27,323 bases of DNA from a virus (IMGVR_UViG_2537561979_000007:1-27323), one strand, 5' to 3'. Shown: positions 1 through 26,966, numbered from the stretch's first letter. The notes: generated from the sequence alone by a model not told the origin. A program made the numbers and translations.

Positions 1-1254
1 ATGCTGGAACAAATGGGCATTGCCGCGAAGCAAGCCTCGTATAAATTAGCGCAACTCTCCAGCCGCGAAAAAAATCGCGTGCTGGAAAAAATCGCCGATG
101 AACTGGAAGCACAAAGCGAAATCATCCTCAACGCTAACGCCCAGGATGTTGCTGACGCGCGAGCCAATGGCCTTAGCGAAGCGATGCTTGACCGTCTGGC
201 ACTGACGCCCGCACGGCTGAAAGGCATTGCCGACGATGTACGTCAGGTGTGCAACCTCGCCGATCCGGTGGGGCAGGTAATCGATGGCGGCGTACTGGAC
301 AGCGGCCTGCGTCTTGAGCGTCGTCGCGTACCGCTGGGGGTTATTGGCGTGATTTATGAAGCGCGCCCGAACGTGACGGTTGATGTCGCTTCGCTGTGCC
401 TGAAAACCGGTAATGCGGTGATCCTGCGCGGTGGCAAAGAAACGTGTCGCACTAACGCTGCAACGGTGGCGGTGATTCAGGACGCCCTGAAATCCTGCGG
501 CTTACCGGCGGGTGCCGTGCAGGCGATTGATAATCCTGACCGTGCGCTGGTCAGTGAAATGCTGCGTATGGATAAATACATCGACATGCTGATCCCGCGT
601 GGTGGCGCTGGTTTGCATAAACTGTGCCGCGAACAGTCGACGATCCCGGTGATCACAGGTGGTATAGGCGTATGCCATATTTACGTTGATGAAAGTGCAG
701 AGATCGCTGAAGCATTAAAAGTGATCGTCAACGCCAAAACTCAGCGTCCGAGCACATGTAATACGGTAGAAACGTTGCTGGTGAATAAAAACATCGCCGA
801 TAGCTTCCTGCCCGTATTAAGCAAACAAATGGCGGAAAGCGGCGTGACATTACACGCAGATGCAGCTGCGCTGACACAGTTGCAGGCAGGCCCCGCGAAG
901 GTGGTGGCGGTTAAAGCCGAAGAGTATGACGATGAGTTTCTGTCATTAGATTTGAACGTCAAAATCGTCAGCGATCTTGACGATGCCATCGCCCATATTC
1001 GTGAACACGGCACGCAACACTCCGATGCGATCCTGACCCGCGATATGCGCAACGCCCAGCGTTTTGTTAACGAAGTGGATTCGTCCGCTGTTTACGTTAA
1101 CGCCTCTACGCGTTTTACCGACGGCGGCCAGTTTGGACTGGGTGCGGAAGTGGCGGTAAGCACACAAAAACTGCACGCACGTGGCCCAATGGGGCTGGAA
1201 GCACTGACCACTTACAAGTGGATCGGCATTGGTGATTACACCATTCGTGCGTAA
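1..1254 (+). CDS. proA: gamma-glutamyl phosphate reductase ProA (complete, 417 aa)
   Basis: Full ORF from ATG at 1; sequence and length recognised as enterobacterial ProA; lies immediately upstream of thrW as in E. coli. Confidence 0.93.
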
Positions 1255-1368
1255 ATAAAACCGGGTGATGCAAAAGTAGCCATTTGATTCACAAGGCCAT
1301 TGACGCATCGCCCGGTTAGTTTTAACCTTGTCCACCGTGATTCACGTTCGTGAACATGTCCTTTCAGG

Positions 1369-1444
1369 GCCGATATAGCTCAGTTGGTAGAGCAGCGCAT
1401 TCGTAATGCGAAGGTCGTAGGTTCGACTCCTATTATCGGCACCA
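1369..1444 (+). tRNA. thrW: tRNA-Thr (anticodon CGU), 76 nt ending in CCA
   Basis: GCCGATATAGCTCAGTTGGTAGAGCAGCGCATTCGTAATGCG...GGTTCGACTCCTATTATCGGCACCA read directly; cloverleaf with CGT in the anticodon loop and a GGTTCGA T-arm. Confidence 0.95.
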
Positions 1445-1458
1445 TTTAAATCAATAAG

Positions 1459-2622
1459 TTACACATCATTAGTACCTTCCTTATTTTTTGACTGGGACAA
1501 ATTTGGGACCGATGGGTTCAGGATCGAGTCTATTTGCTGTGCGTGTTCGGTAAGGTGATTAGGTGCAAGGTGAGCATATCGACGAACCATTTCGATAGAC
1601 TCCCAGCCTCCCATTTCCTGTAACACTGACAACGGGACTCCGGCTTGAACCAGCCAACTTGCCCAGGTGTGTCTCAAGTCGTGAAATCTGAAATCATCAA
1701 TACCAGCCCGTCTCAGCGCCGCTTTCCAGGCTGTGTTTGCGTCATACCGCATCTTCCTTACTGTTGGCGCTTTCGTTCCGTCTGGTTTGGTACAGCTTTC
1801 CTTGTACACAAATACCCAACGGTGATGATTCCCGATTTGTTTTTTCAATACGCGACATGCAGTATCATTCAGCGCAACGCCAATTGCGCGGTTTGATTTA
1901 CTCTCTTCCGGGTTTATCCATGCCACCCGGCGCTGCATATCTATTTGTTGCCATTCAAGGTTGATGATGTTCGAGCGTCTTAAGCCTGTTGCCAGTGCAA
2001 ATTCAACAACAGACTTTAATGGCTCCGGACATTCATCAATCAGCCTTTGTGCTTCATGGGGCTCCAGCCAGCGGATCCGTTTATTCTTTGGTTGAGGCAC
2101 TTTAATAATTGGTGCCTTATCCAGCATTTTCCATTCACGCTCTGCGGCTCTTAGTAGGGCCTTTATAAATGAAAGATGCGTAGCCTTCGTTGCAACGGAC
2201 GCTGGTTTTGGCGTGTATCCTGGAACAGGTTTCCCTTTTTTTCTGCATGCTTCTGCCCTGAGTTTCCAGTTTTCCTCATGACGCCGGTTCGTCATTTTCT
2301 GCATTGCTGAATAAATTTTTGATTCAGTAATGTCTCTTAGTTGCATTCCTGCGAAATGTTGAAGCCAGAATCCGATCCGGCTTTTGTCATCGTCCAGTGA
2401 TTTTTTATGTGCTTTCTCTTCAAGCCACCTGACACACGCTTCCTCGAACGTTATATCAGGTATTTCACCAAGTTTGCTGACCCGCCATGCTTCAGCCTTT
2501 AGCTTGTCATGGAGTTCTGTCGCCTGCCTTTTGTCCTTTGTTCCAAGAGACTGTTTAAATCTTTTACCGTTCGGCAATGTGAAACTGGCGTACCATATTT
2601 CACCTCTGCGGAAGAGTGACAT
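1459..2622 (-). CDS. int: Phage tyrosine integrase (387 aa)
   Basis: C-terminal HDLRHTWAS...RRYAHL catalytic region typical of tyrosine recombinases; N-terminal arm-binding-like [14 protein letters not shown]; sits next to the tRNA. Confidence 0.9.
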
Positions 2623-6746: not shown

Positions 6747-7439
6747 TTAATTATGTCTCTTAAGGGTTTGCGACTGACTGATTAAGACCTTTCCAAAGAC
6801 CATGAATCGGTGTTCGTTTTCGCTAGTAATTCCCCATTCACGGTAAATCTGGTTATCAGAAATCACCAGCAGTTTGTCAGGAATCATTTGAAGTCTTTTA
6901 ACGTATATTTTGTCATCAAAACCAAAGACATATATACCATCACCATCAAACTGATTGATGCTGACATCAACGAAGATGAGATCTCCTGGCTCAATGGTTG
7001 GACACATACTGTCCCCACGAACGTTGATAACTTTGATGTGATTGGCCGGTCGTCCGCCGAACATTGATACAGCATTATCAGTTCTGTATTCGATGGCATG
7101 AATCACATCAATGACATCACCGCCCTGGATAAGGCCATTTCCCGCACTGGCACTGATATCCAGCATTTCAATACGGAACACATCCTTCACCTGCGCAACA
7201 TCCTCATTATTACTGTTTTTATATACAGTATTACTTTTGAGGGCAGAGGTAAAGAGATCAGCAATATCAACACCTAAGCTCTTGGCAATATTACTCAGTG
7301 TTTGTTCGGTAAATTGTTTTTGCTTACCCGTTTCTAAGCGCGAGATGTTCGCCGCATCTACTCCTATTGCTTCAGCGAGATCGGCGATTTTCATGTTCTT
7401 CGCTTGGCGAAGTTGTCTGACTCGGTTTCCTATGTTCAT
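6747..7439 (-). CDS. CI-like repressor: N-terminal HTH plus C-terminal S24 (LexA-like) peptidase domain, 230 aa
   Basis: HTH (MKIADLAEAIGVDAANISRLETG); S24 motifs GDSMCPTI (Ser) and KRLQ (Lys); divergent from a cro-like gene with operators between. Confidence 0.88.
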   Translation of the reverse strand: MNIGNRVRQLRQAKNMKIADLAEAIGVDAANISRLETGKQKQFTEQTLSNIAKSLGVDIADLFTSALKSNTVYKNSNNEDVAQVKDVFRIEMLDISASAGNGLIQGGDVIDVIHAIEYRTDNAVSMFGGRPANHIKVINVRGDSMCPTIEPGDLIFVDVSINQFDGDGIYVFGFDDKIYVKRLQMIPDKLLVISDNQIYREWGITSENEHRFMVFGKVLISQSQTLKRHN

Positions 7440-12488: not shown

Positions 12489-12505
12489 TTTTGTGGAGAA
12501 AGTTG

Positions 12506-12868
12506 ATGCGTGATATTCAAATGGTTCTGGATCGTTGGGGAGCATGGGCGGCGAGTGATAGTTCAGGAGTAGACTATTCTCCTATAGCTGCTGGGTTTAA
12601 AGGGCTTCTTCCCTATACAAGCAAAACACGTCAGGCTTGTTCAGATAGTGATGCATTAATTATTGAAGGTTGTCTTGCTCTTCTTAAAAAGCGAAAACCG
12701 TACGAGCATTCTTTGATTGTGGCCCATTACCTGTATGGCATCTCGAAAAGAAAGCTTGCAAGAGCTCGCAAAAAAGATGAGAAATTGATACGTATAGAGA
12801 TACAGATGGCTGAAGGGTTTATTGATGGATGCCTTTCAATGCTGGATGTTAAACTTGAAATGGAGTAG
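12506..12868 (+). CDS. Late-gene antiterminator Q, short QuuD-like type (120 aa)
   Basis: MRDIQMVLDRWGAWAAS...IAAGFKGLLP matches my recollection of short Q antiterminators; GGAG 8 nt before ATG 12506; position after the Nin block. Confidence 0.72.
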   Translation: MRDIQMVLDRWGAWAASDSSGVDYSPIAAGFKGLLPYTSKTRQACSDSDALIIEGCLALLKKRKPYEHSLIVAHYLYGISKRKLARARKKDEKLIRIEIQMAEGFIDGCLSMLDVKLEME

Positions 12869-12873
12869 AAAAA

Positions 12874-12893
12874 AGGGCATTTCTGCCCTTTTT
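12874..12893. terminator. Bidirectional intrinsic terminator between Q and the convergent cassette
   Basis: AGGGCA-TTTC-TGCCCT hairpin flanked by AAAAA on one side and TTTTT on the other. Confidence 0.5.
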
Positions 12894-13335
12894 AAATGTG
12901 GGGGAGTATCCAGTTTACTTTTCTCCATGTAAAGGCAAAAGTTATTACTGAAATGATAAGAAGAGATAAAGATTCGATAATTAAAATAAATTCTATTTTT
13001 TCTCCATGTAACAATGTCTTTTCATTGGCAAACATTGCTATCAAAGCAATAACGCATGCCGTAATTAAAGATGCACCTGCGGTTAATAGATTTACAATAA
13101 TAACTTGAAGTATGTTGTTGTTTTTTAATGCTTTTATTATTCCATTTGAGTTTTCGCTAGCAGCACTAAAAATTGATATTGTGGCTAAAATAAAACCAAA
13201 TAAAATACCGGATACAGTTGAAATAACCCCGGAGGCTGTAAGTATGTCAGCATGCCCCATCTGAGGGATATACCTCAGTAGGAACAAGGTGCAAAAAACA
13301 CTTACAATCAGGTTTCTTAAGTATTTCAATAACAT
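12892..13335 (-). CDS. Small integral membrane protein, about four predicted TM helices (147 aa); second gene of the AT-rich cassette
   Basis: Four long hydrophobic stretches; AAGAAGG SD; separated by 3 nt from the upstream gene; visibly AT-rich. Confidence 0.62.
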   Translation of the reverse strand: MLLKYLRNLIVSVFCTLFLLRYIPQMGHADILTASGVISTVSGILFGFILATISIFSAASENSNGIIKALKNNNILQVIIVNLLTAGASLITACVIALIAMFANEKTLLHGEKIEFILIIESLSLLIISVITFAFTWRKVNWILPHI

Positions 13336-13338
13336 ATC

Positions 13339-14279
13339 CTATACCTTCTTTTTGCTGATATCGTATTGCTTAAGGTATTCATTGTTATCAATTTTAGCAG
13401 AAATCATGGCTTGCAGAACATCACTATCAGTGCCATAACCATTAACGGTATATATGTTTTTTTCTGAAATGAGTACCTGATCAAGAAGACTTTGTTCAAC
13501 GGTATTTTTGGGCTGTGTTACTGCCGCTTTTTTTACAATTCCCGGCATTTTTTCAAGGAGTTCTTTAATACCATCCTTAACGAGATCTGATAAATAACCT
13601 TTGACTTTTACTCTCCCTGATGCACGTCCCCTTAGATTTAACTTGAGACGTGTTCCACCCAGCCCTACCATCATATTTACCAGTTCCTTAGAAAATGAAC
13701 TATTTAGCTGGTAATTTGTTGCATCAAAGTTCCTGGGAGCAGCCAGGACAATATCACAACTTCTCAAAGTACTTCCTGTTTCAAGTAGCTCTTTGACGCT
13801 CTCTTTTTTCCAGATGGCTTGGAATGAAAAGTTATTTCCAGGATTACCACTCTGGCTGTAAAGCAGATAAGCTAAATCCGATTCTTTCGGCCCAAGATGA
13901 TTTTGAGTTAATATTAAAATATCACTATCGTAATAATATAAAAAATAGGTTCTTTCGACTATGTATTTTTTATCATCTAGTGGTATGTTGTGCTCATTCC
14001 AGTATTCATCACCAATATAAGGAAGGAGATACTCTTCTCGTGAGCATGACATGTAGCCGAAGAAATATTTAGCTTTTGTATCTTTATTTATAAAAGCTAT
14101 TTTTAACTTTTTATTTCTATAGATGGTATCAAAATGATTATTCGTAACGGTTACGCAAGTATTATACAGATTTTCAATTGCTTGCTTAGCAACTGAATGG
14201 CTGCGGATAGTCCCAGAACTGCTGGTGTAAAAACCAATTTTAAGTTTTTTTGTTTCTTTGATTGCGCAATAGTAGCCAT
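13339..14279 (-). CDS. Hypothetical cytoplasmic protein, first gene of the AT-rich cassette; apparent frameshift at an A7 tract near the 5' end (313 aa if the tract were A8)
   Basis: ATG at 14277-14279 with AAGG SD opens an 11-codon frame that runs into an A7 run (plus-strand T7 at 14245-14251); the 237-aa body (track ORF 13339..14052) is open in the adjacent frame all the way up to that run. Confidence 0.5.
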
Positions 14280-14555
14280 GTTAAACCTTAGTATACTAAT
14301 AATTTCTTATGGATCTTTTTTTATATGGCTTTAATTTAGCAAAAAAAATTACCGCGGTCCGCAAATTTTATCTTAATCTGTTAAGAGTGGTTACTTCGCC
14401 ACACAGCTTAAACCCGCCGTCGAGCGGTTTTTTGTACCTGTAAACCTGGTGCAGTACAGTAAACACGCTGGTGGTCGTGAATACTGACTTTTTATCTTGC
14501 TGGCTTTTTAGACAAGAGTTATTGGTATGTCATGTTAACCAGAAGGGAAAAAGAC

Positions 14556-14909: not shown

Positions 14910-15962
14910 ATGAAAAATACTGTAAAAATAAACAGTGTTGATTTAATCAACTCTGATTGCCTGCATTTTATTCAGTCCCTGCCTGATGATTCCATTGACC
15001 TGATAGTTACCGATCCGCCGTACTTCAAAGTGAAGCCCAACGGCTGGGACAATCAGTGGAAAGGGGACGAAGATTACCTTAAGTGGCTGGACCACTGTCT
15101 GGCTCAGTTCTGGCGGGTGCTGAAACCTGCCGGAAGCCTTTACCTGTTCTGTGGACATCGCCTGGCATCTGATATCGAGATCATGATGCGTGAACGTTTC
15201 AACGTGCTTAACCATATCATCTGGGCGAAGCCGTCCGGACGTTGGAATGGGTGTAATAAAGAAAGTCTGCGCGCATATTTTCCTGCCACAGAGCGCGTTC
15301 TGTTTGCTGAACATTACCAGGGGCCATATCGCGGCAAAAGTGACGGCTATGCGGCAAAAGAAAGGGAACTCAAACAGCACATAATGGCACCGCTGATATC
15401 GTATTTCAGGGATGCTCGTGCCGAACTGGGTATAACGGCAAAACAAATTGCCGAAGCCACAGGTAAGAAAAATATGGTTTCCCACTGGTTTGGTGCCAGT
15501 CAGTGGCAGTTGCCGAATGAGGCTGACTATCGGAAGTTACAGGCACTGTTTTCTCGTATAGCGGCAGAGAAGTTTCAGGAACAACAACTGGAACAACCAC
15601 ACCACCAGCTGGTGGCATCTTATGATTCACTGAATCGCAAATATTCTGAATTGCTGGATGAGTTTAAATCTCTCCGGCGCTATTTCTCCGTATCAGTCTC
15701 CGTGCCTTATACCGATGTCTGGACGCATAAGCCCGTTCAGTTCTACCCGGGTAAACATCCGTGCGAGAAACCGGCGGATATGCTCCGGCAAATAATCAAT
15801 GCCAGTAGTCGACCTGGTGATCTGGTTGCTGATTTCTTTATGGGATCCGGTTCCACAATAAAAGCAGCAATGGCGCTGGGGCGTCGGGCGTTAGGTGTTG
15901 AACTTGAGTCAGAGCGGTTTAATCAGACGGTGAAAGAGGTAAGTGAACTGGTGGGGAAATAA
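14910..15962 (+). CDS. Orphan DNA methyltransferase, beta-class (DPPY motif IV before FxGxG motif I), probably N6-adenine (350 aa)
   Basis: DLIVTDPPY near the N-terminus and DFFMGSGST near the C-terminus; no adjacent restriction-endonuclease gene. Confidence 0.85.
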   Translation: MKNTVKINSVDLINSDCLHFIQSLPDDSIDLIVTDPPYFKVKPNGWDNQWKGDEDYLKWLDHCLAQFWRVLKPAGSLYLFCGHRLASDIEIMMRERFNVLNHIIWAKPSGRWNGCNKESLRAYFPATERVLFAEHYQGPYRGKSDGYAAKERELKQHIMAPLISYFRDARAELGITAKQIAEATGKKNMVSHWFGASQWQLPNEADYRKLQALFSRIAAEKFQEQQLEQPHHQLVASYDSLNRKYSELLDEFKSLRRYFSVSVSVPYTDVWTHKPVQFYPGKHPCEKPADMLRQIINASSRPGDLVADFFMGSGSTIKAAMALGRRALGVELESERFNQTVKEVSELVGK

Positions 15963-15969
15963 TTCTGGT

Positions 15970-15991
15970 GGCCACGTTGCGTGGCCTTTTT
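15970..15991 (+). terminator. Intrinsic terminator between the methyltransferase and holin (tR'-like position)
   Basis: Perfect 7-bp stem GGCCACG-TTG-CGTGGCC followed by TTTTT. Confidence 0.55.
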
Positions 15992-16038
15992 ATTTCCAAC
16001 ACAGCACCCGCAAATATCGCGAGGTGAGAGATGACGAA

Positions 16039-16374
16039 ATGCCTCATAACCCAAATACCTGGCCGGACTGGCTGGAGTTGTTTCAGAGCTGGTGGCGTGG
16101 AGACACACCGCTGGGCGCAGTGATTATGTCGATCGTTATGGCTGGCTTGCGCATTGCCTATTTTGGCGGTGGTGGTGGCTGGAAGCGAAAAACGCTCGAG
16201 ATTTTGCTCTGTGGTGCTCTGACGCTGACTTTTGCATCCGCTCTTGAGTATGTCGGATGGCCTAAATCACTATCTGTTGCCATTGGTGGTGGGGTGGGGC
16301 TGATCGGTGTTGATGCTATTCGTGGGGCTGCAATGAGAGTAATCGGTAACAAGTTTGGTGGCTCTAAGGAGTAA
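16039..16374 (+). CDS. Holin, lambda S-like (111 aa, three hydrophobic segments)
   Basis: In-frame ATG at 16039 after GAGGTGAG; three TM-like segments; directly upstream of the endolysin; the track ORF start at 15943 would span the terminator. Confidence 0.68.
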   Translation: MPHNPNTWPDWLELFQSWWRGDTPLGAVIMSIVMAGLRIAYFGGGGGWKRKTLEILLCGALTLTFASALEYVGWPKSLSVAIGGGVGLIGVDAIRGAAMRVIGNKFGGSKE

Positions 16375-16377
16375 TTT

Positions 16378-16854
16378 ATGCAGGTACTAAATTCCCAGCG
16401 TAAAGCTTTCCTCGATATGGTGGCATGGTCAGAAGGAACGGATAACGGGCGACAACCGACACGTAACCACGGTTATGATGTTATTGTCGGTGGAGAACTC
16501 TTCACTGATTACTCCGATCACCCTCGCAAACTTGTCAAGCTAAACTCCAAACTCAAATCAACAGCCGCCGGACGTTACCAGCTTCTTTCCCGTTGGTGGG
16601 ATGCTTACCGTAAACAGCTTGGTTTGAAAGACTTCTCCCCCAAAAGCCAGGACGCAGTGGCATTGCAGCAGATTAAAGAGCGTGGCGCTTTACCTATGAT
16701 TGATCGCGGTGATATCCGTCAGGCTATCGATCGTTGCAGCAATATCTGGGCTTCATTGCCGGGCGCTGGTTATGGTCAGTTCGAGCATAAGGCTGACAGC
16801 CTGATTGCAAAATTCAAAGAAGTTGGCGGAACGGTCAGAGAGATTGAAGTATGA
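16378..16854 (+). CDS. R: Endolysin, lambda R-type lytic transglycosylase (158 aa)
   Basis: Near-identical by recollection to lambda R (QRKAFLDMVAWSEGTDNGRQ...GYDVIVGGELFTDYSDHPRKLV...). Confidence 0.9.
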   Translation: MQVLNSQRKAFLDMVAWSEGTDNGRQPTRNHGYDVIVGGELFTDYSDHPRKLVKLNSKLKSTAAGRYQLLSRWWDAYRKQLGLKDFSPKSQDAVALQQIKERGALPMIDRGDIRQAIDRCSNIWASLPGAGYGQFEHKADSLIAKFKEVGGTVREIEV

Positions 16855-16889
16855 GCAGAGTCACCGCGATTATCTTCAGACCCATACTG

Positions 16890-17369
16890 ATATGCCCGGC
16901 AACGATGACCTGAAGGGCATTAACGTGAAATACCGTTATGAATTTACGGACACGCTGGGGCTGGTGACGTCATTCAGTTATGTCAATGCCAAAGATGAGC
17001 AAAAAAACGCATTACAGCGATACCCGCTGGCATGAAGATTCAGTGCGTAACCGCTGGTTCAGCATGATGGCGGGGCCGTCTGTACGCGTGAATGAATGGT
17101 TCAGTGCTTATGCGATGGCAGGTGTGGCTTACAGCCGTGTTTCAACTTTTTCCGGGGATTATCTCCGCGTAACTGACAGCAAGGGGAAAACGCACGATGT
17201 GCTGACTGGAAGTGATGACGGTCGCCACAGCAACACGTCTCTGGCGTGGGGGGCTGGCGTGCAGTTTAACCCGACCGAATCCGTGGCCATTGATATTGCT
17301 TATGAAGGCTCCGGCAGTGGTGACTGGCGCACTGACGGTTTCATCGTGGGTGTCGGTTATAAATTCTGA
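16890..17369 (+). pseudogene. lom: lom-like outer-membrane protein (Ail/Lom/PagC family), 5'-truncated and frameshifted at an A7 tract
   Basis: Lom-like strands (LKGINVKYRYEFTD ... DIAYEGSGSGDWRTDGFIVGVGYKF) split across two frames at the A7 run 17001-17007; no signal peptide; preceded by a 24-nt Rz start (ATGAGCAGAGTCACCGCGATTATC). Confidence 0.72.
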
Positions 17370-17395
17370 TTAGCCAGGTAACACAGTGTTATGAC

Positions 17396-17423
17396 AGCCC
17401 GCCGGTTCAGGCGGGCTTTTTTG
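17396..17423 (+). terminator. Intrinsic terminator after lom
   Basis: AGCCCGCC-GGTTCA-GGCGGGCT hairpin followed by TTTTTT. Confidence 0.7.
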
Positions 17424-17433
17424 TGGAGTGGAT

Positions 17434-19812
17434 ATGGCAGCAGTAAAAATCTCAGGTGTGCTGAAAGATGGTGCGGGAAAACCAATACAGAACTGCACTA
17501 TTCAACTGAAGGCAAAGCGTAACAGCACCACGGTACTGGTGAACACGGTGGCCTCTGAAAATCCGGATGAAGCCGGGCGTTACAGCATGGATGTTGAGCA
17601 TGGCCAGTACAGCGTCATCCTGCTGGTTGAAGGTTTTCCGCCTTCACATGCCGGGACCATTACCGTCTATGAAGGCTCCAGACCAGGTACGCTGAATGAT
17701 TTTCTCGGTGCCATGACGGAAGAGGATGTCATGCCGGAGGCATTGCGTCGTTTTGAGGCAATGGTGGAAGAAGTGGCACGCAACGCCGAAGCCGCCTCTC
17801 AGAGCGCAGCGGCGGCAAAGAAATCCGAAACTGCAGCGGCATCATCGAAGAACGCGGCGAAAACCTCAGAAACGAATGCAGCTAATAGTGCACAGGCGGC
17901 AGCGACCTCAAAGACTGCATCGGCAAACTCCGCGACAGCAGCCAAAAAATCAGAAACCAACGCGAAAAACAGTGAGACAGCCGCAAAGACGAGCGAAACC
18001 AACGCAAAGTCCAGCCAGACGGCAGCGAAAACCAGCGAAACGAATGCTAAAGCCAGTGAAACTGCGGCAAAAAACAGCCAGGCTGCAGCAGCTGAAAGCG
18101 AGAGCGCGGCAGCCGGTTCTGCGACTTCAGCAGCTGGATCAGCAACTGCTGCGGCTAACAGCCAGAAAGCTGCGAAGACGAGTGAAACTAACGCAAAGTC
18201 CAGCCAGACGGCAGCGAAGACCAGCGAAACGAATGCCAAAGCCAGTGAAACTGCGGCGAAAAGCAGTCAGGATGCAGCGGCCCAAAGCGAGAGTGCCGCA
18301 GCCAGTTCTGCAAGCGCGGCGGCTGCTTCTGCCACTGCATCAGCCAACAGTCAAAAAGCTGCAAAAACCAGTGAAACCAACGCAAAGGCGAGCGAGACTG
18401 CGGCGGCTAACTCGGCGAAAGCATCCGCTGCAAGCCAGACGGCTGCAAAAGCAAGTGAAGACGCAGCCAGAGAGTATGCAAGCCAGGCTGCGGAGCCGTA
18501 TAAACAAGTTTTGCAGCCGCTTCCCGATGTGTGGATACCGTTTAACGATTCACTGGATATGATTACGGGGTTTTCGCCGTCATATAAAAAGATTGTTATT
18601 GGTGATGATGAAATAACGATGCCTGGCGATAAGGTTGTAAAGTTTAAACGCGCATCGAAAGCAACCTATATTAATAAATCTGGTGTGCTGACAGAGGCTG
18701 CCATTGACGAGCCACGATTTGAACGTGATGGCCTGCTTATTGAGGGGCAAAGAACTAATCTTCTGCTTAATTCAACAAATCCATCTAAATGGAATAAGTC
18801 AGGCAATCTGGAACTCACAGAAATATCCACGGATTCTTTTAATTTTACTTATGGGAGATTTACTGTAAAAGATACTCTTATTGGTCAAACAAGTGCGATT
18901 AGTATCGTAACGGTTTCTGGCAGTAAAGGATTTGATGTCACAGGTGATGAAAAATATGTGACCATTTCATGCCGTGTCAGAAGTGATGTTGAAAATATAA
19001 GGTGTCGTTTAAGATTTGAACATCATGATGGTTCTACTTACACTTTTTTGGGAGATGCTTACCTCAATTTATCAACACTTGTAATTGATAAAACTGGTGG
19101 TGCAGCAAATCGTATTATTGCAAAGGCTGTAAAAGATGAGGCTACTGGTTGGATTTTCTATCAGGCTACAATTACTGCACTAGATACAGAGAGCATGATT
19201 GGTGCGATGGTTCAATACGCTCCAGTAAAAGGTTCAGACACAGCATCTGGAGACTATCTGGATATCGCAACTCCACAAGTGGAAGGTGGATCAAGTGCTT
19301 CGTCATTTATTGTAACTGATACAACTGCAAGCACCCGCGCAAGCGATATAGTTACAGTTCCAATTAAGAATAATCTTTATAGTCTTCCTTTTACAGTTCT
19401 GGTTGAGGTTCATAAAAACTGGAATAAAACACCAAATGCAGCACCGCGTGTTTTTGATACCGGCGGTCATCAAACCGGAGCGGCTATTATTCTTAGCTTC
19501 GGTTCTTCAGCAGATTACGACGGATTTCCTTATTGCGATATTGGAGGAGCTAACAGACGGGTAAACGAAAACGCATCGCTTGAAAAAATGGTTATGGGGA
19601 TGCGTGTAAAGTCAGATCAGTCTACGTGCTCAGTAAGTAACGGGCGTATATCCAGCGAAACAAAAACCACATGGTCTTATATTCAGAACACCGCAATTAT
19701 CCGTATTGGAGGCCAGACTACAGCCGGGTTACGTCATTTATTTGGTCATGTCAGGAATTTCAGAATATGGCACAAGGCATTGACTGATGCTCAGGTGGGG
19801 GAGTTAATCTAA
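17434..19812 (+). CDS. stf: Side tail fibre protein Stf: lambda-like N-terminus, Ala/Ser/Thr-rich repeat shaft, divergent AT-rich C-terminal receptor-binding domain (possibly LamG/ConA-like)
   Basis: N-terminal MAAVKISGVLKDGAGKPIQNCTIQLKA... resembles lambda Stf; start taken at ATG 17434 after GGAGTG; C-terminal third is visibly AT-rich. Confidence 0.82.
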   Translation: MAAVKISGVLKDGAGKPIQNCTIQLKAKRNSTTVLVNTVASENPDEAGRYSMDVEHGQYSVILLVEGFPPSHAGTITVYEGSRPGTLNDFLGAMTEEDVMPEALRRFEAMVEEVARNAEAASQSAAAAKKSETAAASSKNAAKTSETNAANSAQAAATSKTASANSATAAKKSETNAKNSETAAKTSETNAKSSQTAAKTSETNAKASETAAKNSQAAAAESESAAAGSATSAAGSATAAANSQKAAKTSETNAKSSQTAAKTSETNAKASETAAKSSQDAAAQSESAAASSASAAAASATASANSQKAAKTSETNAKASETAAANSAKASAASQTAAKASEDAAREYASQAAEPYKQVLQPLPDVWIPFNDSLDMITGFSPSYKKIVIGDDEITMPGDKVVKFKRASKATYINKSGVLTEAAIDEPRFERDGLLIEGQRTNLLLNSTNPSKWNKSGNLELTEISTDSFNFTYGRFTVKDTLIGQTSAISIVTVSGSKGFDVTGDEKYVTISCRVRSDVENIRCRLRFEHHDGSTYTFLGDAYLNLSTLVIDKTGGAANRIIAKAVKDEATGWIFYQATITALDTESMIGAMVQYAPVKGSDTASGDYLDIATPQVEGGSSASSFIVTDTTASTRASDIVTVPIKNNLYSLPFTVLVEVHKNWNKTPNAAPRVFDTGGHQTGAAIILSFGSSADYDGFPYCDIGGANRRVNENASLEKMVMGMRVKSDQSTCSVSNGRISSETKTTWSYIQNTAIIRIGGQTTAGLRHLFGHVRNFRIWHKALTDAQVGELI
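17998..18375 (+). repeat. In-frame tandem duplication (2 x 189 bp) in the stf shaft region
   Basis: aacgcaaagtccagccagacggcagcgaa... recurs 189 bp apart (from about 18001 and 18190), encoding two 63-aa TNAKSSQTAAKTSETNAKASETAAK... units. Confidence 0.6.
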
Positions 19813-20102: not shown

Positions 20103-21143
20103 ATGGCTACATCGACAGTAATTCCTGAAGACATCAAAACGCTAAAATCCGACGTTAGCAAATTAAAAAACGATCAAGGAAGCTACGCAACAAAATCTTA
20201 TGTAGACAATAAAACAACATGGAATGGTTATTGCAATGTAATCTATGATCAAAAAACATTGCCAACAACTGGAACTATATTCAGCGGTAAGCTGCATTTG
20301 TCAAATAAGACTGGTGAAACGGAAAACGCTTATAGTGACATATATACCAGAAAAAATATTGATGGTACTAAAGATACAATGACGAGGATCGTCACACATA
20401 ACGGGACAAAAGGTATCTTTTGGGACTTTAGTGATCTTTACGGAGGAACTTTAATTTTCCCTGGCACTGCTGGTTATTTGAAAATGGGTAAGTGCCTCAT
20501 GTCCTATGGGGATCGTGTAGATAATGCCCTGATTAAATTTGATTATACAGACACATTACAGATCAAATATGCTAATCACGGGTCGACCATGACATTAAAC
20601 ACACAGGGAACCGCTTATGCTGGTGTTACTGCTAAATTGTGGGGCAACTCTAGCCGTCCGGTTGTTTATGAAGTCGGTGTTGATGGTGGCGCTTATATGT
20701 TCTATGCGCAGAAAAATACCGATAACACCTATATGTTAAGCGTTAATGGTGCATGTCATGCCACCGCATTTAACCAGCATTCCGACCGGGATCTGAAAGA
20801 CAACATTCAGGTGATCAATAATGCAACCGACCGCATCCGTAAAATGAACGGCTATACATACACGCTTAAAGAAAACGGTATGCCCTATGCTGGTGTCATT
20901 GCACAGGAAGCTCTGGAAGCAATCCCAGAAGTTGTAGGTTCCGCAATGAAATATCAGGACGGTGCAAGCGGATCGGAAGGTGAAGAAGGTGAACGTTATT
21001 ACACAGTAGATTATTCTGGTGTTACTGGCTTGCTTGTTCAGGTAGCCAGAGAGTCAGACGACAGAATAACAGCACTGGAAGAAGAAAATGCAGAATTAAA
21101 ACAAAGATTATCTGCAATTGAGGCGACGCTTGCGTCTAAATAA
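20103..21143 (+). CDS. Tail fibre/spike protein with C-terminal peptidase-S74-like intramolecular chaperone domain (346 aa)
   Basis: SDRDLKDNI followed by GVIAQE and a terminal coiled coil (ALEEENAELKQRL), as in self-cleaving fibre chaperone domains; GAGGGAG SD. Confidence 0.72.
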   Translation: MATSTVIPEDIKTLKSDVSKLKNDQGSYATKSYVDNKTTWNGYCNVIYDQKTLPTTGTIFSGKLHLSNKTGETENAYSDIYTRKNIDGTKDTMTRIVTHNGTKGIFWDFSDLYGGTLIFPGTAGYLKMGKCLMSYGDRVDNALIKFDYTDTLQIKYANHGSTMTLNTQGTAYAGVTAKLWGNSSRPVVYEVGVDGGAYMFYAQKNTDNTYMLSVNGACHATAFNQHSDRDLKDNIQVINNATDRIRKMNGYTYTLKENGMPYAGVIAQEALEAIPEVVGSAMKYQDGASGSEGEEGERYYTVDYSGVTGLLVQVARESDDRITALEEENAELKQRLSAIEATLASK

Positions 21144-21149
21144 TATTAA

Positions 21150-21172
21150 GGGGCCGAGCGCCCCGTTTTATT
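21150..21172 (+). terminator. Intrinsic terminator after the tail-fibre gene
   Basis: GGGGC-CGAGC-GCCCC hairpin followed by GTTTTATT. Confidence 0.5.
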
Positions 21173-21179
21173 GGGTAGG

Positions 21180-21479
21180 ATGAAAATGGATATAACACCT
21201 TTCCTTCATGCACTTTGTGCTGTGGCTGCGCAGGTACTGGTTGGTCTTTTTACCGGAAACTGGGCTTACGGGGCGATAGCCGGTTGTACGTTCTTCATTG
21301 CTCGTGAACATACCCAGGCAGAATATCGCTGGATTGAAATGTTCGGGCATGGCAAGCGTATGAATATGCCGTGGTGGGGTGGTTTTGATCCGCGCGTGTG
21401 GGATGTGGCAAGCCTGATGGATTTTTCTGTGCCGGTGGTGGCTTGTCTGCTGGTCTGGCTGTTGGTTAATCGTGGGTGA
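21180..21479 (+). CDS. Hypothetical small membrane protein (about 100 aa)
   Basis: ORF with two hydrophobic segments; start uncertain (TTG 21171 in the track, ATG at 21180 or 21186). Confidence 0.45.
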   Translation: MKMDITPFLHALCAVAAQVLVGLFTGNWAYGAIAGCTFFIAREHTQAEYRWIEMFGHGKRMNMPWWGGFDPRVWDVASLMDFSVPVVACLLVWLLVNRG

Positions 21480-21952
21480 AAAAGGGAGTTGTAAACGCAA
21501 CACAGGAAGAGGTGCCGCTTCAGGTTGCTGGGAATAAGCGCCGGGGTCTGTTAAATCATGCCAATACGCTAATCGAGCCAGATATTGAGTAGCCTGCAGT
21601 CCGTCATGGCGTAATCGTTTTGTGATATGCTGCACGCCGTATGCAAGGAGCATGATTGCGCTCGACTGGCGAGCGCTCGATAGTGCTACTATTGAATGAT
21701 TGCTAGTCTAGGCGGATTGTACTTAAGTAATATGACGGTTCAAGGCGTTTAATCTGAAACCAGCCACATATTAGCCTTTTCAAACATTTCCTGAACACTC
21801 AGGCTTACCTGCTCTTTCTCGTGCTTGCTGGCATTTGTGTTGAGCGCCGGTGAATACTCTTACTCAACACTCCCAGAATTATATCTGTTGCATCAGGCAG
21901 ACCATCAAAATTCTTTTGTCATAAACGAGTTCCACGAATAATGTGCCCTATG

Positions 21953-21971
21953 GTAGGGCACTATTGATATG
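21953..21971 (-). terminator. Putative terminator hairpin downstream of the minus-strand gene 22025..22819
   Basis: Perfect palindrome GTGCCCTA-TGG-TAGGGCAC, followed on the minus strand by ATTATT (weak U-tract). Confidence 0.4.
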
Positions 21972-22024
21972 AATGAGTAGCTAAAAAGATTTTTCGTTAT
22001 GTATTAATGTATCTGTCACTTATT

Positions 22025-22819
22025 TTATAGTAAAGATGATATGCCAGCAAGAAATGGAGTAAATACTGTAATGTGTGCAGATACATTATTAATAAAGTCC
22101 TTATATGCTTCTTTAAAACAGCCGCTTTGGTGACTGGCTGCCAGTGCCTGTACATTATCTATAAGGTGTGATTCTGTCGCGCCATCAAAGTTTTTCGATT
22201 TTATTGCCTCAATCATTTCATTAAATATTGTGGGCTCATTATAATTTGTCGTAGTAGTTGCCGTAGCACCTGAAGAATGTATATTGATACTAGAACCGGA
22301 AATTCCACTGACATGAATATTAGCTTCTTGTTTCATAAGAGGTAAACCATTCTCCATCTTGTATAGGTCACTATCTTGTAGCATCTGCAATGTGATACGT
22401 ACTGCTGCTAATAGTTGTTCTTGCTTTTTGAATAAGGAACACATCTGTTCTACAGACCAAAGCTGAACTGCATTTTCTTCGCATGTTTTTTTAGCTATAT
22501 TTGGCACTTCCGAATCATAATTACCATAAACCCAAGTGTCCTTGAATCTTTCGATAATAGCTGTCAACGTTGGAAATTTACTGAAATCACTATTAATGGA
22601 TAGTAACTCATCAGACATATAAAGTGCCATATCTCTGCCTTCCGCATATACTGCTTCCACTTTATTCCGTGTTGCAAATGGTATTCTTGAAATAAAACGA
22701 AAATCCTCTTCATTTTTTAAATGGACCCAGTCTTTATCAAAACGGCTAAATTCGTACCCTATCGATAACAGTCTACTTATATATTGGGCTACTGATTCCA
22801 AATCTTTTCTTATGTCCAA
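22025..22819 (-). CDS. Hypothetical protein, AT-rich orphan (264 aa from TTG 22819; 271 aa from TTG 22840)
   Basis: Long ORF with no in-frame ATG for about 70 codons; AGGAGT lies 6 nt before TTG at 22817-22819; terminator-like palindrome downstream; no family recognised. Confidence 0.55.
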   Translation of the reverse strand: MDIRKDLESVAQYISRLLSIGYEFSRFDKDWVHLKNEEDFRFISRIPFATRNKVEAVYAEGRDMALYMSDELLSINSDFSKFPTLTAIIERFKDTWVYGNYDSEVPNIAKKTCEENAVQLWSVEQMCSLFKKQEQLLAAVRITLQMLQDSDLYKMENGLPLMKQEANIHVSGISGSSINIHSSGATATTTTNYNEPTIFNEMIEAIKSKNFDGATESHLIDNVQALAASHQSGCFKEAYKDFINNVSAHITVFTPFLAGISSLL

Positions 22820-23289
22820 AGTATTACTCCTGCTTGTCAACCGAATCTGTCGGTTTTCTTACAAATGGCTTGTCTTTAAAGTTCTGATTAAAAAGACGCT
22901 AACCAATACTTAATAATACATGAAAAAAAAGCGCATAAGCTGGCTTTTTTATCAATCGGGAACTGCGGCCCCTTTGCGTATCCTTTTTTGTTTCTTCACC
23001 GTCTGGTCGGTGTTCTGCTGAGACTGCTAATTTCCTGTTTTTGCTAGTGCTGTCTTGGCACTGTCCATCGTGATTGGTGGACTGGTGAAGTTGAAACCGC
23101 AGACACGTCGTATGCAAGAACGTGCTGCGGCTGGCTGGTGAACTTCCGATAGTGCGAGTATTGAATGATTTACAGCCGTTATTGATTTTACATATTTTTT
23201 GTATGAAAGGATTAGCGCCTCCTCCCACCGATCCTCCATGACTTTACGCCACTGTCTCTAGGACTGCTATGTGCTAGGAACGGACATAG

Positions 23290-23652
23290 AAAACACGATG
23301 TTATAAGATTAGGTGCATCTATCCGATAGTATTCATTGGACGTGATGATCGTACTAAGCCGATCTCAAAGGAAAGCATTAATCAGGTAATTGAGCTATTA
23401 GGATAAAAAGGAAGGCTGACGGGGCATGGTTTTCGTCACACAATGAGTACCATTCTGCACGAAGAAGGATTCAACTCTGCATGTTTCGAAACACAACTTG
23501 CACATGTGGATAAGAACGCTATTCTCGGGGCTTACAATCATGCACAGTATTTGGAAGGGAGACAACAGATGATGCAGTGGTATAGTGAATACATAGATAG
23601 CTTGTCTAGAAATAGACTTCCGCAATTTTTTCTTCAAAAAAAGGCAGTATGA
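23290..23652 (+). pseudogene. C-terminal remnant of a P4-type tyrosine integrase (5'-truncated, in-frame stop at 23404)
   Basis: ...GRDDRTKPISKESINQVIELLG*KGRLTGHGFRHTMSTILHEEGFNSACFETQLAHVDKNAILGAYNHAQYLEGRQQMMQWY matches the C-terminal catalytic region of P4-type integrases by recollection (HGFRHT box, AYNHA Tyr box); about 280 N-terminal residues absent. Confidence 0.65.
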
Positions 23653-23714
23653 ACAATAAATCTAGTTGATGCATACAAAGGTTTATTGTCGATAGCAAGA
23701 GGAGCGTCAAAATC

Positions 23715-26700
23715 ATGAATGTACAGAAAACCAAATTTTCATCTAAAGAATTTCTAAGGCGCCGTCGCCCTGAAAAATTTTCTGATTCAACAATCAGAGA
23801 GACTGGTACTTTAGACAGAGTTGTACTGGAACACTTCCTCTCTACGCTAAATACAAGAAATCAAGAACTACAATTCGAAGATTTTGCAAAAAAAATATGT
23901 GAAAAAATAATTTGCCCTAATCTCCTTGAACAAACTGGCCCTGTAGCAGGGGGGGATGGTAAAACTGACACACAAACATTCCCTGTTTCAGAACAGAATA
24001 AGCTTCTTTGGTTCGAAGGCGTTAATGAAGCATCAAATAGAGAACGCTGGGCCTTTGCGGTAAGTACACGTAAAGACTGGAAGAAAAAATGCCATGAAGA
24101 TGTACTTAAGATAAAAGAAACAGAACGTGGGTATGCTAAAGTATTTTGCGTAACGAACCAGTCTGCAAAGTCCAATATTCGTTCAGAGGTTGAGGATACA
24201 CTAAAAACAAAAACTGGAATAGATGTTCGTATATTAGATATTAATTGGCTATTAGATCAAATTTACAAAAATAATTTTGAGCAATTGGCCATTGATTCAT
24301 TGTCAGTTCCAACGCAATATAAAAGAGAAGTTATTTTTGGAGAAAATGATTATAAAAAGCATAAAAAATATGAAGAGTTAACCGAGTATATTAGAGAGAA
24401 AATAAACCCTGCTGAAATTTCATATGAACAGGTGGATATTTTTTTAGAAATTGCAGAGTTAAGCGCTGAACTTGAGAAACCACTAATTGAAACACAAGGT
24501 CTATTTGAAAGAGCTATAAAAATATCAAAGAAATTCGGGACTAATCAACAATTGCTAGATGCGTATTATCAATATGCCTGGAAGTCTCATTTTTGGATGG
24601 AAGATTTTAATCTCTTTGAAGAAAATCTTCAATTTGCATATGAAAGTATTGCATCATCAACTAATTCCTCAAAATGGGAGAAAGTTTTAAATTTAGTAAC
24701 CGTTCATAAAAGTTATATTAGACTTAACAACGCAACATCTACAATCGATATTGAGAATATTGAACGTAACATGCTCGCTAAACTAGATGAGATAGCTGAC
24801 GATGAATCACGTCCCAGTAATGCACTCACAGCGAGAACTCACAAAGCTATTTATAAATTGACAACGTTTTCAGATGTAGAAGATGCTTCGGTTGTATTTG
24901 AAGAGTTACATGAAATTTTTAAAAATAGTGGAAATTTAATAGGCTATTCCTTTGAGAAGAACTTCCAACTTTTGAACGAACTGGATGACATTTTTTTCGA
25001 GGTAGATGCATATGAAAATTTATTAGACTATATGACTGAGCAATCTGCTGTTAGAGGTGGTGAAGTTAAAGGGGCATTATTAAATCTACGAAGAGGTATA
25101 AAGAGGATTCAAAATGGTCACCCTTATCAGGCAATCAAGTATTTAGGAAAATCATTTATACCACTCTATAAAGAGGAATCACGAGATAAATTTATATTAG
25201 CATTAAAAGCTATTGCTTATGCTTACGAATCCATTGGGTTGCTATGGAGTTCACGTTCATGCTTGCTTCTATCCGCTTCTTTGATTACAGATAACTACTG
25301 GAAGTATGATGAGATATCATTAAAGCAGGCTGAGATTTATTATAGTTTATGCCTGGCAGAAATAAAACTAGGGAAATTAGCACATGCTCTTTTATGGTAT
25401 GAACTGTTTTTAATAATTAACCAAAATATCAGTGATAGCTCGTTCGGCGATAAAGAAAATCAGCAAGTTGATTTTTACATAAGTCAACTCATTTTGAACA
25501 CTGACCTAAATGGAATAAATCGACAGAGTAATATTCCCGATGAACTCGATAGATTAGGTCTTTTTGTATCATCTGGATGTCTTAAATATGCTTTAGGTTA
25601 TATTGAAAATTTTGAACATGAGTACGAAGTTACTGCCGATAAAGATCATAATGATTTCTTGCAAAAAATACGTGACTTTGATGCTGGATTCAATAGTAAA
25701 GGCATAAAAGATAACTATGATAAACGAGGAATATATACATCTTTTATTTTTGGATGCACTATAGAAATTAACTTTCCGAATCGGTCACCATTTATAGAGT
25801 TTTCAACTAGTATCTTAGCGCTTTTAGAGAGTGCTTTTGCAACTTGTACGATTGATAACATCCATCTGAAAGAAGCATTTTTAATTATTGAAGTAATAGC
25901 AGATGATGAAGATGACTTCTCCTTATCACATGAAATAAATAGCAATAATGGAAAACTAAACCTTACTATAAATTGCAATGGTTTTGAAACAAGTGCATTT
26001 AGAGTCGATGTTCAACAAAAAATTACTAATGAATTCAAGAAAATAGTATTTGATCTTCTCCCTGAGTTATTTTTTATAAAAAATACAGAATACATTGAAA
26101 GAATGATATTCGAAGATGCTGCATTTGACAGAGCAATTAGTTTCGGTGCCTGTATCAAAGCTATTGAAAATGTTCTTGGAAATGATATTGATCAACAAAT
26201 TAAGAAAATTTATTCCACCAGTACTGAAAAGAAAACTTACCCTCTTTTAAGAGATAAACCCTGGGATAGTGAATTTCCAAAAGTGTTGGAGATCGAGGAT
26301 GTAAATGTTCCAACACCTGGTAAAGGAATAATGCCTGAAGAGGAACTTAATTCCGAAAATATAACGCATAAAGATTATTCAATACAAAGTCTAATCAAAC
26401 CTCGTCTATGGGATAGAACACGCTGGCAAGGAGTAGGCTTCGCTCAATTAAAATCGTGTTATCCAGGGTTATATCTATTATTTAAACACCCCGATATAGG
26501 TGAGGATATTTTTAAAGATCTTATATCATCAGTAGGCTTGGTAGATAGTAAAGCCAGATTACGGGTTTGTATTGTCAAGGGTATTTCAGTTAAAAACCCA
26601 AATCATTATAGAGTACTGATATCTGAAAATATGATGACAACGCCATTAACTAAAAGAATGACAATGATCAGTAGAATTAATACGATGACTCCTGATAGTA

Positions 26701-26966
26701 ACGTCAATTTAGAAAGATTTCTTGCTGCGTATCAGGCCTGTGGAAAATTCTATCTTGGATGTGATGCGATGTTAAAAAATATTGTTCCTGAGCATCCACA
26801 AAGAGATAGTTTAGGGATAGAAATGAGTACGTTAGATGTTAGGTGGGCTTGGGAAATTGGGTTAAATGATGTTGATTGTATTGGGGTTAATTTAAAAGAA
26901 GATGACCCCTATATTCCTAGTGATGTAGCTGAGATCCCATTATTGCAATTGATAAACAGTAAATAA
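23715..26966 (+). CDS. Large orphan protein (1083 aa): N-terminal Mrr-like PD-(D/E)xK nuclease-type motifs plus about 900-aa predominantly helical C-terminal region
   Basis: Uninterrupted 3.25-kb ORF, GAGGAG upstream, visibly AT-rich; N-terminal GGDGKTD ... AFAVSTRK ... KVFCVTNQS resembles the Mrr catalytic pattern (GDGGIDG ... QCK ... GVFITTSSF); no Walker A/B motifs. Confidence 0.8.
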   Translation: MNVQKTKFSSKEFLRRRRPEKFSDSTIRETGTLDRVVLEHFLSTLNTRNQELQFEDFAKKICEKIICPNLLEQTGPVAGGDGKTDTQTFPVSEQNKLLWFEGVNEASNRERWAFAVSTRKDWKKKCHEDVLKIKETERGYAKVFCVTNQSAKSNIRSEVEDTLKTKTGIDVRILDINWLLDQIYKNNFEQLAIDSLSVPTQYKREVIFGENDYKKHKKYEELTEYIREKINPAEISYEQVDIFLEIAELSAELEKPLIETQGLFERAIKISKKFGTNQQLLDAYYQYAWKSHFWMEDFNLFEENLQFAYESIASSTNSSKWEKVLNLVTVHKSYIRLNNATSTIDIENIERNMLAKLDEIADDESRPSNALTARTHKAIYKLTTFSDVEDASVVFEELHEIFKNSGNLIGYSFEKNFQLLNELDDIFFEVDAYENLLDYMTEQSAVRGGEVKGALLNLRRGIKRIQNGHPYQAIKYLGKSFIPLYKEESRDKFILALKAIAYAYESIGLLWSSRSCLLLSASLITDNYWKYDEISLKQAEIYYSLCLAEIKLGKLAHALLWYELFLIINQNISDSSFGDKENQQVDFYISQLILNTDLNGINRQSNIPDELDRLGLFVSSGCLKYALGYIENFEHEYEVTADKDHNDFLQKIRDFDAGFNSKGIKDNYDKRGIYTSFIFGCTIEINFPNRSPFIEFSTSILALLESAFATCTIDNIHLKEAFLIIEVIADDEDDFSLSHEINSNNGKLNLTINCNGFETSAFRVDVQQKITNEFKKIVFDLLPELFFIKNTEYIERMIFEDAAFDRAISFGACIKAIENVLGNDIDQQIKKIYSTSTEKKTYPLLRDKPWDSEFPKVLEIEDVNVPTPGKGIMPEEELNSENITHKDYSIQSLIKPRLWDRTRWQGVGFAQLKSCYPGLYLLFKHPDIGEDIFKDLISSVGLVDSKARLRVCIVKGISVKNPNHYRVLISENMMTTPLTKRMTMISRINTMTPDSNVNLERFLAAYQACGKFYLGCDAMLKNIVPEHPQRDSLGIEMSTLDVRWAWEIGLNDVDCIGVNLKEDDPYIPSDVAEIPLLQLINSK

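Follow-up and report, generated by a model that had tools for sequence, protein, structure and literature searches.

Rex of phage lambda is the oldest known abortive-infection system; to our knowledge, neither its trigger nor its channel mechanism has been settled. The number of Rex-like systems described so far has been put at only five (PMC12894663, 2026). The Rex mechanism that we refer to below is taken from published work on lambda and on a prophage pair of Pseudomonas putida (PMC11077077; PMC12894663). In the P. putida pair both genes are required for defence, the sensor binds DNA, and excess sensor halts growth and makes the cells leaky, both effects requiring the membrane protein (PMC12894663). 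Rex-like pairs of actinophages exclude heterotypic phages, and some of them lie away from the repressor gene (PMC11077077, PMC12894663). As the position of these pairs varies, location 3' of cI is not a strict criterion for assignment to the class.

Here we analyze a two-gene cassette in a stretch of viral DNA of 27,323 nucleotides (IMGVR_UViG_2537561979_000007), which we call the window. Comparison of protein families indicates that the cassette is probably a divergent two-gene phage exclusion (abortive infection) system of the RexAB class, in which the large protein, a member of DUF6731, would be a remote homologue of RexA and the small one a remote homologue of RexB.

Organization of the cassette and its prophage

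A preliminary description of the window, made from the sequence alone, had pointed to an AT-rich insert that converges with Q and carries its own ribosome-binding sites and a bidirectional terminator. The GC content is indeed 0.28-0.42 over 12850-14350, compared with 0.51-0.59 upstream and about 0.47-0.51 downstream. Two co-oriented genes on the minus strand face the plus-strand Q gene (Table 1), with purine-rich ribosome-binding motifs, GAAGG/AGGA located 5' of the small gene and AAGG 5' of the large gene. The large gene ends in a stop codon located 3 nt before the ATG of the small gene. The hairpin between the cassette and Q has a predicted folding energy of about -13 kcal/mol on either strand (-13.4 kcal/mol, z -4.4, on the minus strand; -13.0 kcal/mol, z -3.3, on the plus strand), and a T-run follows the stem on each strand. 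It is absent from the output of a consensus terminator scan. A bidirectional terminator is a plausible reading of this hairpin, which could end the transcription of both Q and the cassette.

The right edge of the cassette-specific DNA lies at ∼14373-14411; from there on, thousands of E. coli genomes match the window. In the AT-rich region upstream of the large gene, a standard scan of the minus strand found no sigma-70 consensus site, and a relaxed promoter scan of the region returned weak candidates only. The best of these, a possible extended -10 element (TGcTAAATT, 14341-14333, minus strand), is itself a weak candidate, and no convincing site was found. Just beyond the cassette, about 3,000 E. 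coli genomes, K-12 (577222-577277) among them, share a 56-nt segment (14378-14433) at 96% conservation; it holds a terminator-like hairpin with a T-run on the plus strand (14416-14428). This segment may be a late-promoter or leader-terminator region served by Q.

With Q on one side and the methylase and lysis genes on the other, the cassette is not in the immunity-operon position 3' of cI. The prophage that carries it is defective: the holin gene and a following 158-aa ORF are succeeded by a truncated lom and the tail-fibre genes, with no terminase, head or tail genes between them (15943-19812). The left end of the window (1-2622) looks like a chromosome-prophage junction, with an aldehyde-dehydrogenase-family gene (possibly proA), a tRNA gene and an integrase gene. 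Past the tail-fibre genes, the region 21168-26966 contains three sizeable ORFs without a Pfam family, which could be cargo or effector genes. The holin ORF opens with a GTG inside the 3' end of the methylase gene, and its Pfam match begins at residue 35; the true start of the holin probably lies further downstream.

Table 1. Coordinates of the cassette and of surrounding features in the window.
Feature	Position	Strand	Remarks
tRNA-Thr (CGT)	1369-1444
Tyrosine integrase gene	1459-2622	-
CI gene	6747-7439		far from the cassette
Q gene	12491-12868	+	PF06530
Intrinsic-terminator-like hairpin, bidirectional, AAAAAGGGCA-GAAA-TGCCCTTTTT	12870..12893		between the stops of Q and the membrane gene
rexB-like gene, intact, 147 aa, four-helix inner-membrane protein (predicted)	12892..13335	-	ORF, hydropathy, model
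rexA-like gene, DUF6731 (PF20505), frameshifted	13339..14279	-	313 aa if A8
237-aa residual ORF	13339..14052	-	start is native Met77
42-aa ORF left by the frameshift	14151..14279	-	residues 1-11 native, remainder out of frame
A7 homopolymer	14245..14251	-	codons 10-12 (KKQKK region); one base less than in-frame A8
Cassette-specific AT-rich upstream region	14280..14377	-	presumed to bear the promoter; from flank comparison with other E. coli genomes
Small ORF, then N6/N4 DNA methylase	14910-15962		beyond the cassette, on the far side from Q
Holin gene	15943-16374	opposite to cassette	PF05106
lom, N-terminally truncated	16980-17369		matches Ail_Lom positions 77-199
Tail-fibre genes	17428-19812, 20103-21143
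ORF, 161 aa	21168-21653	-	no Pfam family
ORF, 271 aa	22025-22840	-	no Pfam family
ORF, 1083 aa	23715-26966	+	no Pfam family

The large gene is frameshifted in the window

The large protein belongs to DUF6731 (PF20505), which it matches over residues 34-260 with 40 bits (gathering cut-off 27, E 4e-10); 21 of its 37 close homologues also exceed the threshold of this family. Searches of both cassette proteins against NCBIfam, PHROGs, PADLOC and Pfam returned DUF6731 and two PHROGs of unknown function, and nothing else.

The preliminary description gave the large gene a soluble product of ∼313 aa. This could not be upheld: no such open frame is present in the window, where the 941 nt from 14279 to 13339 are split into ORFs of 42 and 237 aa. 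The A-tract near the 5' end of the gene had been seen at that stage, yet a 313-aa protein was still described. With seven adenines the tract is one base short of A8, so the gene is frameshifted and its frame breaks after codon 11; adding one A restores the 313-aa frame. The A-tract is the sole indel between the window and intact copies. Public data contain 116 contigs with the exact 313-aa (A8) protein, 5 with an annotated 237-aa A7 product and 1 with an A9-type product that starts at TTG. Among twelve near-identical relatives sampled at the tract, ten have A8; A7 is found in the window and in the pig strain ETEC1738. The cassette of strain ETEC4079 has the same length as that of the window, without an indel, and must therefore also be A7. 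In strain ETEC1706 (NZ_CP122904) a near-identical cassette is another base shorter (1387 nt), and its membrane-gene ORF is annotated into Q; this one-base loss reflects either continued decay or a homopolymer error affecting that series of assemblies.

According to the secondary structure of the model, the 237-aa ORF is devoid of strand 1, helix 1 and strands 2-4 of the globular domain. Residues R14, G16 and F17, which are invariant or nearly so in the alignment, lie in the lost segment. With the conserved N-terminal strand, the helix and another three strands stripped by the frameshift, the sensor in the window is most likely inactive, and in this defective prophage it is probably switched off or decaying. 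The sensor being out of frame (A7, not A8) and the prophage being without head and tail genes, the copy in the window most likely makes the membrane protein only and is not an active two-component system, barring a sequencing error or a slippage reversion. The A7 itself may be a real mutation or a homopolymer sequencing error.

These observations bear on a competing reading, in which the copy in the window is a decaying remnant: a real, inactivating frameshift in a defective prophage would leave at most the membrane protein supplied on its own. We consider this quite possible, if somewhat short of probable. The sharing of A7 by the window, ETEC1738 and ETEC4079 against the common A8, the independence of the five contigs on which the A7 product is annotated, the conserved structural elements held by the lost 76 N-terminal residues, and a prophage in which, head and tail genes being absent, the lysis genes abut the truncated lom, all favour it. 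Against it, the large gene has no stop or indel other than the tract, its remaining differences from intact alleles being single substitutions, and the membrane gene is intact. Moreover, homopolymer length is a classic error of sequencing and assembly, and ETEC1706, from the same series, has another 1-nt difference. For lambda RexB without its partner, RexA-independent activities have been reported, e.g. interference with ClpP-dependent proteolysis.

The same tract could also be taken for a phase-variable contingency switch, in which slippage between A7, A8 and A9 toggles a costly sensor in the population and leaves the membrane gene constantly expressed. Three tract lengths do occur among near-identical alleles, A9 regains the frame via an upstream TTG start, and the extreme 5' end of a gene is the usual site of such switches. 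The strong dominance of A8 (116 contigs against 5 with A7 and 1 with A9) makes a switch unlikely; the more distant alleles keep the lysines without a long homopolymer, with variable K/R/Q in the protein alignment, and part of the length variation is explained by sequencing error. A run of 7-8 adenines is short for efficient slippage. In its full form, to which we likewise assign little probability, this reading would have E. coli prophages of the cdtI type gate the sensor by a 5' poly-A contingency tract within an unrecognised proteobacterial Rex branch of 240 clusters, with lysogens switching between full abortive infection (A8) and a RexB-like state only (A7/A9).

The small gene encodes a predicted four-helix membrane protein

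The second product was described as a 147-aa protein with four hydrophobic helices, encoded 3 nt after the large gene, and two predictions agree with this. Kyte-Doolittle analysis finds four hydrophobic segments, and the AlphaFold model (pLDDT 83.7, pTM 0.74) has long helices at residues 2-22, 28-62, 75-102 and 114-146. In the family alignment the conserved residues are H28, LFGF, K71, G87, C94 and W137. The charge distribution suggests an N-in/C-in topology, by which the conserved K-rich loop between helices 2 and 3 (IIKALKNNN) is predicted to be cytoplasmic. RexB is an inner-membrane protein of about 144 aa with four transmembrane helices, encoded directly after a RexA-type gene; the 147-aa protein corresponds to it in size, helix number and gene position, and its location in the inner membrane is predicted from the sequence.

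No family in Pfam, NCBIfam or PADLOC matches the 147-aa protein. It corresponds to phrog_8552, of unknown function, in PHROGs, and a Foldseek search of BFVD gave no match with a name. In strains GPEC389, K_EC180 and ETEC4079 the RefSeq annotation shortens the membrane gene to 122 aa, with an internal start at Met26, although the 147-aa ORF is intact in all of them. Since the first hydrophobic helix is kept across the family, the long form is probably correct.

The two genes are conserved as a pair

Homologues of the large protein (35-87% identity) occur in Escherichia, Citrobacter, Pectobacterium, Cronobacter, Pantoea, Yersinia, Serratia, Xenorhabdus and Vibrio, and those of the small protein share 24-72% identity. 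They always occur as a pair, from which we conclude that both genes of the cassette are real. In the loci fetched from Pectobacterium, E. coli (an allele of 44% identity), Vibrio, Pantoea and Xenorhabdus, a membrane gene of 143-150 aa lies directly 3' of the large gene. At all 14 of the 14 distant DUF6731 loci in IMG/VR, a multi-helix partner of 138-170 aa follows immediately downstream, often overlapping the stop codon. Conservation of the pair reaches from Enterobacterales as far as Vibrio and Pseudomonas phages. A profile search covering 1.84 billion representatives yielded 240 DUF6731 clusters at 50% identity; a scan of genome contigs recovered 3 loci only. In BFVD, both proteins have their best viral fold match, A0A8S5S8L2 for the large and A0A8S5S8H0 for the small one, in one uncultured phage (Siphoviridae sp. 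ctylc9), which suggests another copy of the pair in that phage.

The genomic contexts of the pair vary. In lambdoid prophages it occupies the slot between Q and the lysis genes. The Vibrio pair is in an island beside a resolvase gene, without lysis genes, and the Pantoea pair is at a prophage end. In Pseudomonas phage AUS531phi and the IMG/VR loci L065, L076 and L077, the pair directly follows a CI-type repressor gene (HTH and Peptidase_S24) on the same strand.

These contexts also bear on the idea that lysis is timed by the small protein, as a membrane protein of the holin or antiholin type. Proximity to the holin gene, small size and several helices are in its favour. The small gene and the holin gene, however, lie on different strands, the small gene being in AT-rich DNA with a terminator of its own, and the same pair is found beside repressor genes and in the Vibrio island. 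The small protein has no significant match to holin, antiholin or spanin families, and we regard a role in lysis timing as highly improbable.

Within E. coli the cassette is mobile, patchy and allelic. A near-identical cassette is present in 25 of 5,426 complete E. coli genomes, and a version of the cassette is detectable at the DNA level in only 54 of them. The proposal that the cassette occupies a moron slot is corroborated by other E. coli strains, in which the same flanks hold either an allele of the pair with 44% identity or an unrelated gene. Strain AR_0151 (NZ_CP021691; positions 1028-2440 of our locus L081) carries the second allele in the slot between Q and the methylase gene, with flanks 97% identical to those of the window. 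Its large and small proteins are 44% and 50% identical to those of the window. This pair is annotated as hypothetical only, and its large protein falls below the Pfam threshold for DUF6731. Strain 1532MA has a different Q type and an unrelated gene at the position of the cassette.

Profile comparisons link both proteins to RexA and RexB

Standard family models do not place the cassette among Rex systems. Neither the large protein nor any of 37 relatives matched the RexA family (PF15969) in Pfam at E<=10, neither the small protein nor 12 relatives matched the RexB family (PF15968) at the same limit, and the two window proteins had no RexA or RexB match in PADLOC. The positive controls were recovered in both collections: lambda RexA scored 327 and 364 bits, and lambda RexB 305 and 202 bits, in Pfam and PADLOC, respectively. 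The search against defence-system profiles that the preliminary description called for thus yielded nothing in PADLOC for either protein of the window.

Profile-profile comparison links both families to Rex. A DUF6731 profile of 169 sequences aligned with the RexA family over 256 columns (residues 11-306 against 2-272) with an HHalign probability of 84% (E 7.5e-6), and with 92% (E 5e-7) when the RexA profile was widened with more divergent relatives. A reversed and 20 shuffled templates gave at most 0.7%. The family of the small protein (24 sequences) aligned with the RexB family, the profile of which was built from sequences beside RexA genes, with 94.2% (E 1e-7; residues 19-108 against RexB 26-113). 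This alignment spans helices 2-3 and the loop between them (87 columns), and in global mode the probability was 91.7% over 134 columns. As membrane proteins can inflate profile scores, we ran controls for this comparison as well; reversed and column-shuffled profiles reached at most 1.9%.

Both links emerged only once each family was widened. HHalign with enterobacterial sequences only gave no significant match to lambda RexA or the RexA family (probability 1-1.5%), so that at the sequence level the link to RexA is carried by the broad family profile. Likewise, a narrow alignment of the partner family gave no significant match to lambda RexB, and the enterobacterial profile, when searched against PDB sequences, found neither RexA nor any other relevant entry. 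In the alignment with RexA, the invariant DUF6731 motif NHLGPKxxDL is placed opposite GPTTSDL of RexA; the register is uncertain around the RexA DNA-binding residues R219/K221. The predicted structure of the large protein shows the elements of the RexA fold: a split globular domain with a 7-stranded sheet, and an inserted beta/alpha dimerisation domain.

Taken as profile evidence, these results point to a common ancestry with RexA and RexB that profile-profile comparison can detect. The likeness to RexA/RexB, originally guessed from gene order and sizes, is accordingly supported by family-profile homology of both genes and not by layout alone.

An alternative would take the large protein for an RdgC-like modulator of DNA transactions or of a developmental switch (recombination or the lysis-lysogeny decision), a role that RexA can have without RexB. 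The large protein scores far higher with RexA than with RdgC (12.5 against 7.2), the strict coupling to a RexB-like membrane protein would be left without explanation, and the pair in the window is far from the immunity region; we find this alternative very improbable. A plain RdgC reading was set aside, since the match to RexA is much stronger and the membrane partner is coupled. We also considered and set aside a toxin-antitoxin reading.

The searched literature has no mention of DUF6731, PF20505 or the protein accessions. The genes of the cassette correspond to orf54 and orf53 of phage cdtI, where they are annotated as hypothetical. We recovered the sensor gene of the P. putida pair, PP_5643, from IMG/VR by its native GTG-start pattern (locus L079, 573-1565; KT2440 prophage P1). 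Its product, RexApp, was rejected as a candidate member of DUF6731, as it matches neither DUF6731 nor RexA in Pfam and has no match to the DUF6731 profiles. It matches the PADLOC candidate PDC-M53A with E 8e-157, whereas the window proteins match nothing in that collection; PDC-M53A hence corresponds to a RexAB-type system. Given that Pfam, PADLOC and the searched literature do not cover the window family as Rex-like and that the P. putida gene is unrelated to it at the sequence level, the family is, as judged from its profiles, a further and previously unrecognised Rex-like branch.

Discussion

If the cassette is a Rex-type exclusion module, its action can be outlined by analogy with the lambda, P. 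putida and actinophage systems. The large protein would be cytoplasmic and, as a dimer, would be bound to DNA in the manner of an RdgC-type clamp. It would act as a sensor that detects a product of the infecting phage or a DNA-protein intermediate of its replication or recombination. The activated sensor would then switch on the four-helix membrane protein, oligomers of which would render the inner membrane leaky, so that membrane potential and ATP drop. The ensuing growth arrest would abort the infecting phage. In the window the module is carried as a moron that separates Q from the late or lysis genes; it runs on the opposite strand and has a bidirectional terminator and expression signals of its own.

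The roles of the two proteins could in principle be reversed, as in the pair gp30/gp31 of mycobacteriophage Butters, where a cytoplasmic toxin is restrained by the membrane protein. Such logic is documented for one Rex-like pair (PMC12894663), and a frameshift that turns off the sensor gene would be a way to shed a toxic gene. In lambda, CarolAnn, Sbash and P. putida, however, the membrane protein is the effector, and both genes of the present family are kept together at every sampled locus. By sequence, reversed roles are not separable from the exclusion module outlined above; we think them quite improbable.

Assignment to the Rex class gives a testable function to DUF6731, the partner of which is an unnamed membrane protein family, and would tie both to the oldest known system of abortive infection. 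The branch would add a Rex-like system in E. coli, Pectobacterium, Vibrio and Pseudomonas phages that the RexAB models of PADLOC miss. The diverged pair is native to E. coli, and its natural alleles of 44-87% identity in one slot would provide a comparative system for the essential features of RexA and RexB.

The fold of RdgC and Chl4-Iml3 (CENP-N/L) sets itself apart from the cassette: the match of the large protein to it is much weaker than to RexA, and proteins of this fold have another role and no membrane partner. RexABpp of P. putida prophage P1 (PP_5643/PP_5644) belongs to a separate lineage, and its partner protein has ∼185 aa. The actinophage pairs Sbash gp30/31, CarolAnn gp44/43 and Butters gp30/31, which we compare by their descriptions, resemble the cassette as distant RexA/RexB-like pairs of temperate phages; they differ in that their hosts belong to another phylum and, in Butters, in the reversal of roles.

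The closest counterpart is lambda RexAB (PDB 8TWQ). The sequence identity to it is ∼14%, and the Pfam and PADLOC models of RexA and RexB miss the cassette; the large protein is 34 residues longer than RexA, and its gene is frameshifted in the window. The pair in the window is on the opposite strand in the moron slot between Q and the lysis genes and not in a cI operon, and its regulation must therefore differ from that of lambda rexAB. The cI-rexA-rexB layout is shared by the other DUF6731 pairs that directly follow cI. In both systems, two adjacent co-oriented genes are carried by a prophage, a cytoplasmic protein being encoded first and a four-helix membrane protein of ∼145 aa second, with the same order and spacing and with comparable sizes (279/144 aa in lambda, 313/147 aa in the A8 cassette), and the profile of the large protein aligns with that of RexA over nearly its full length.
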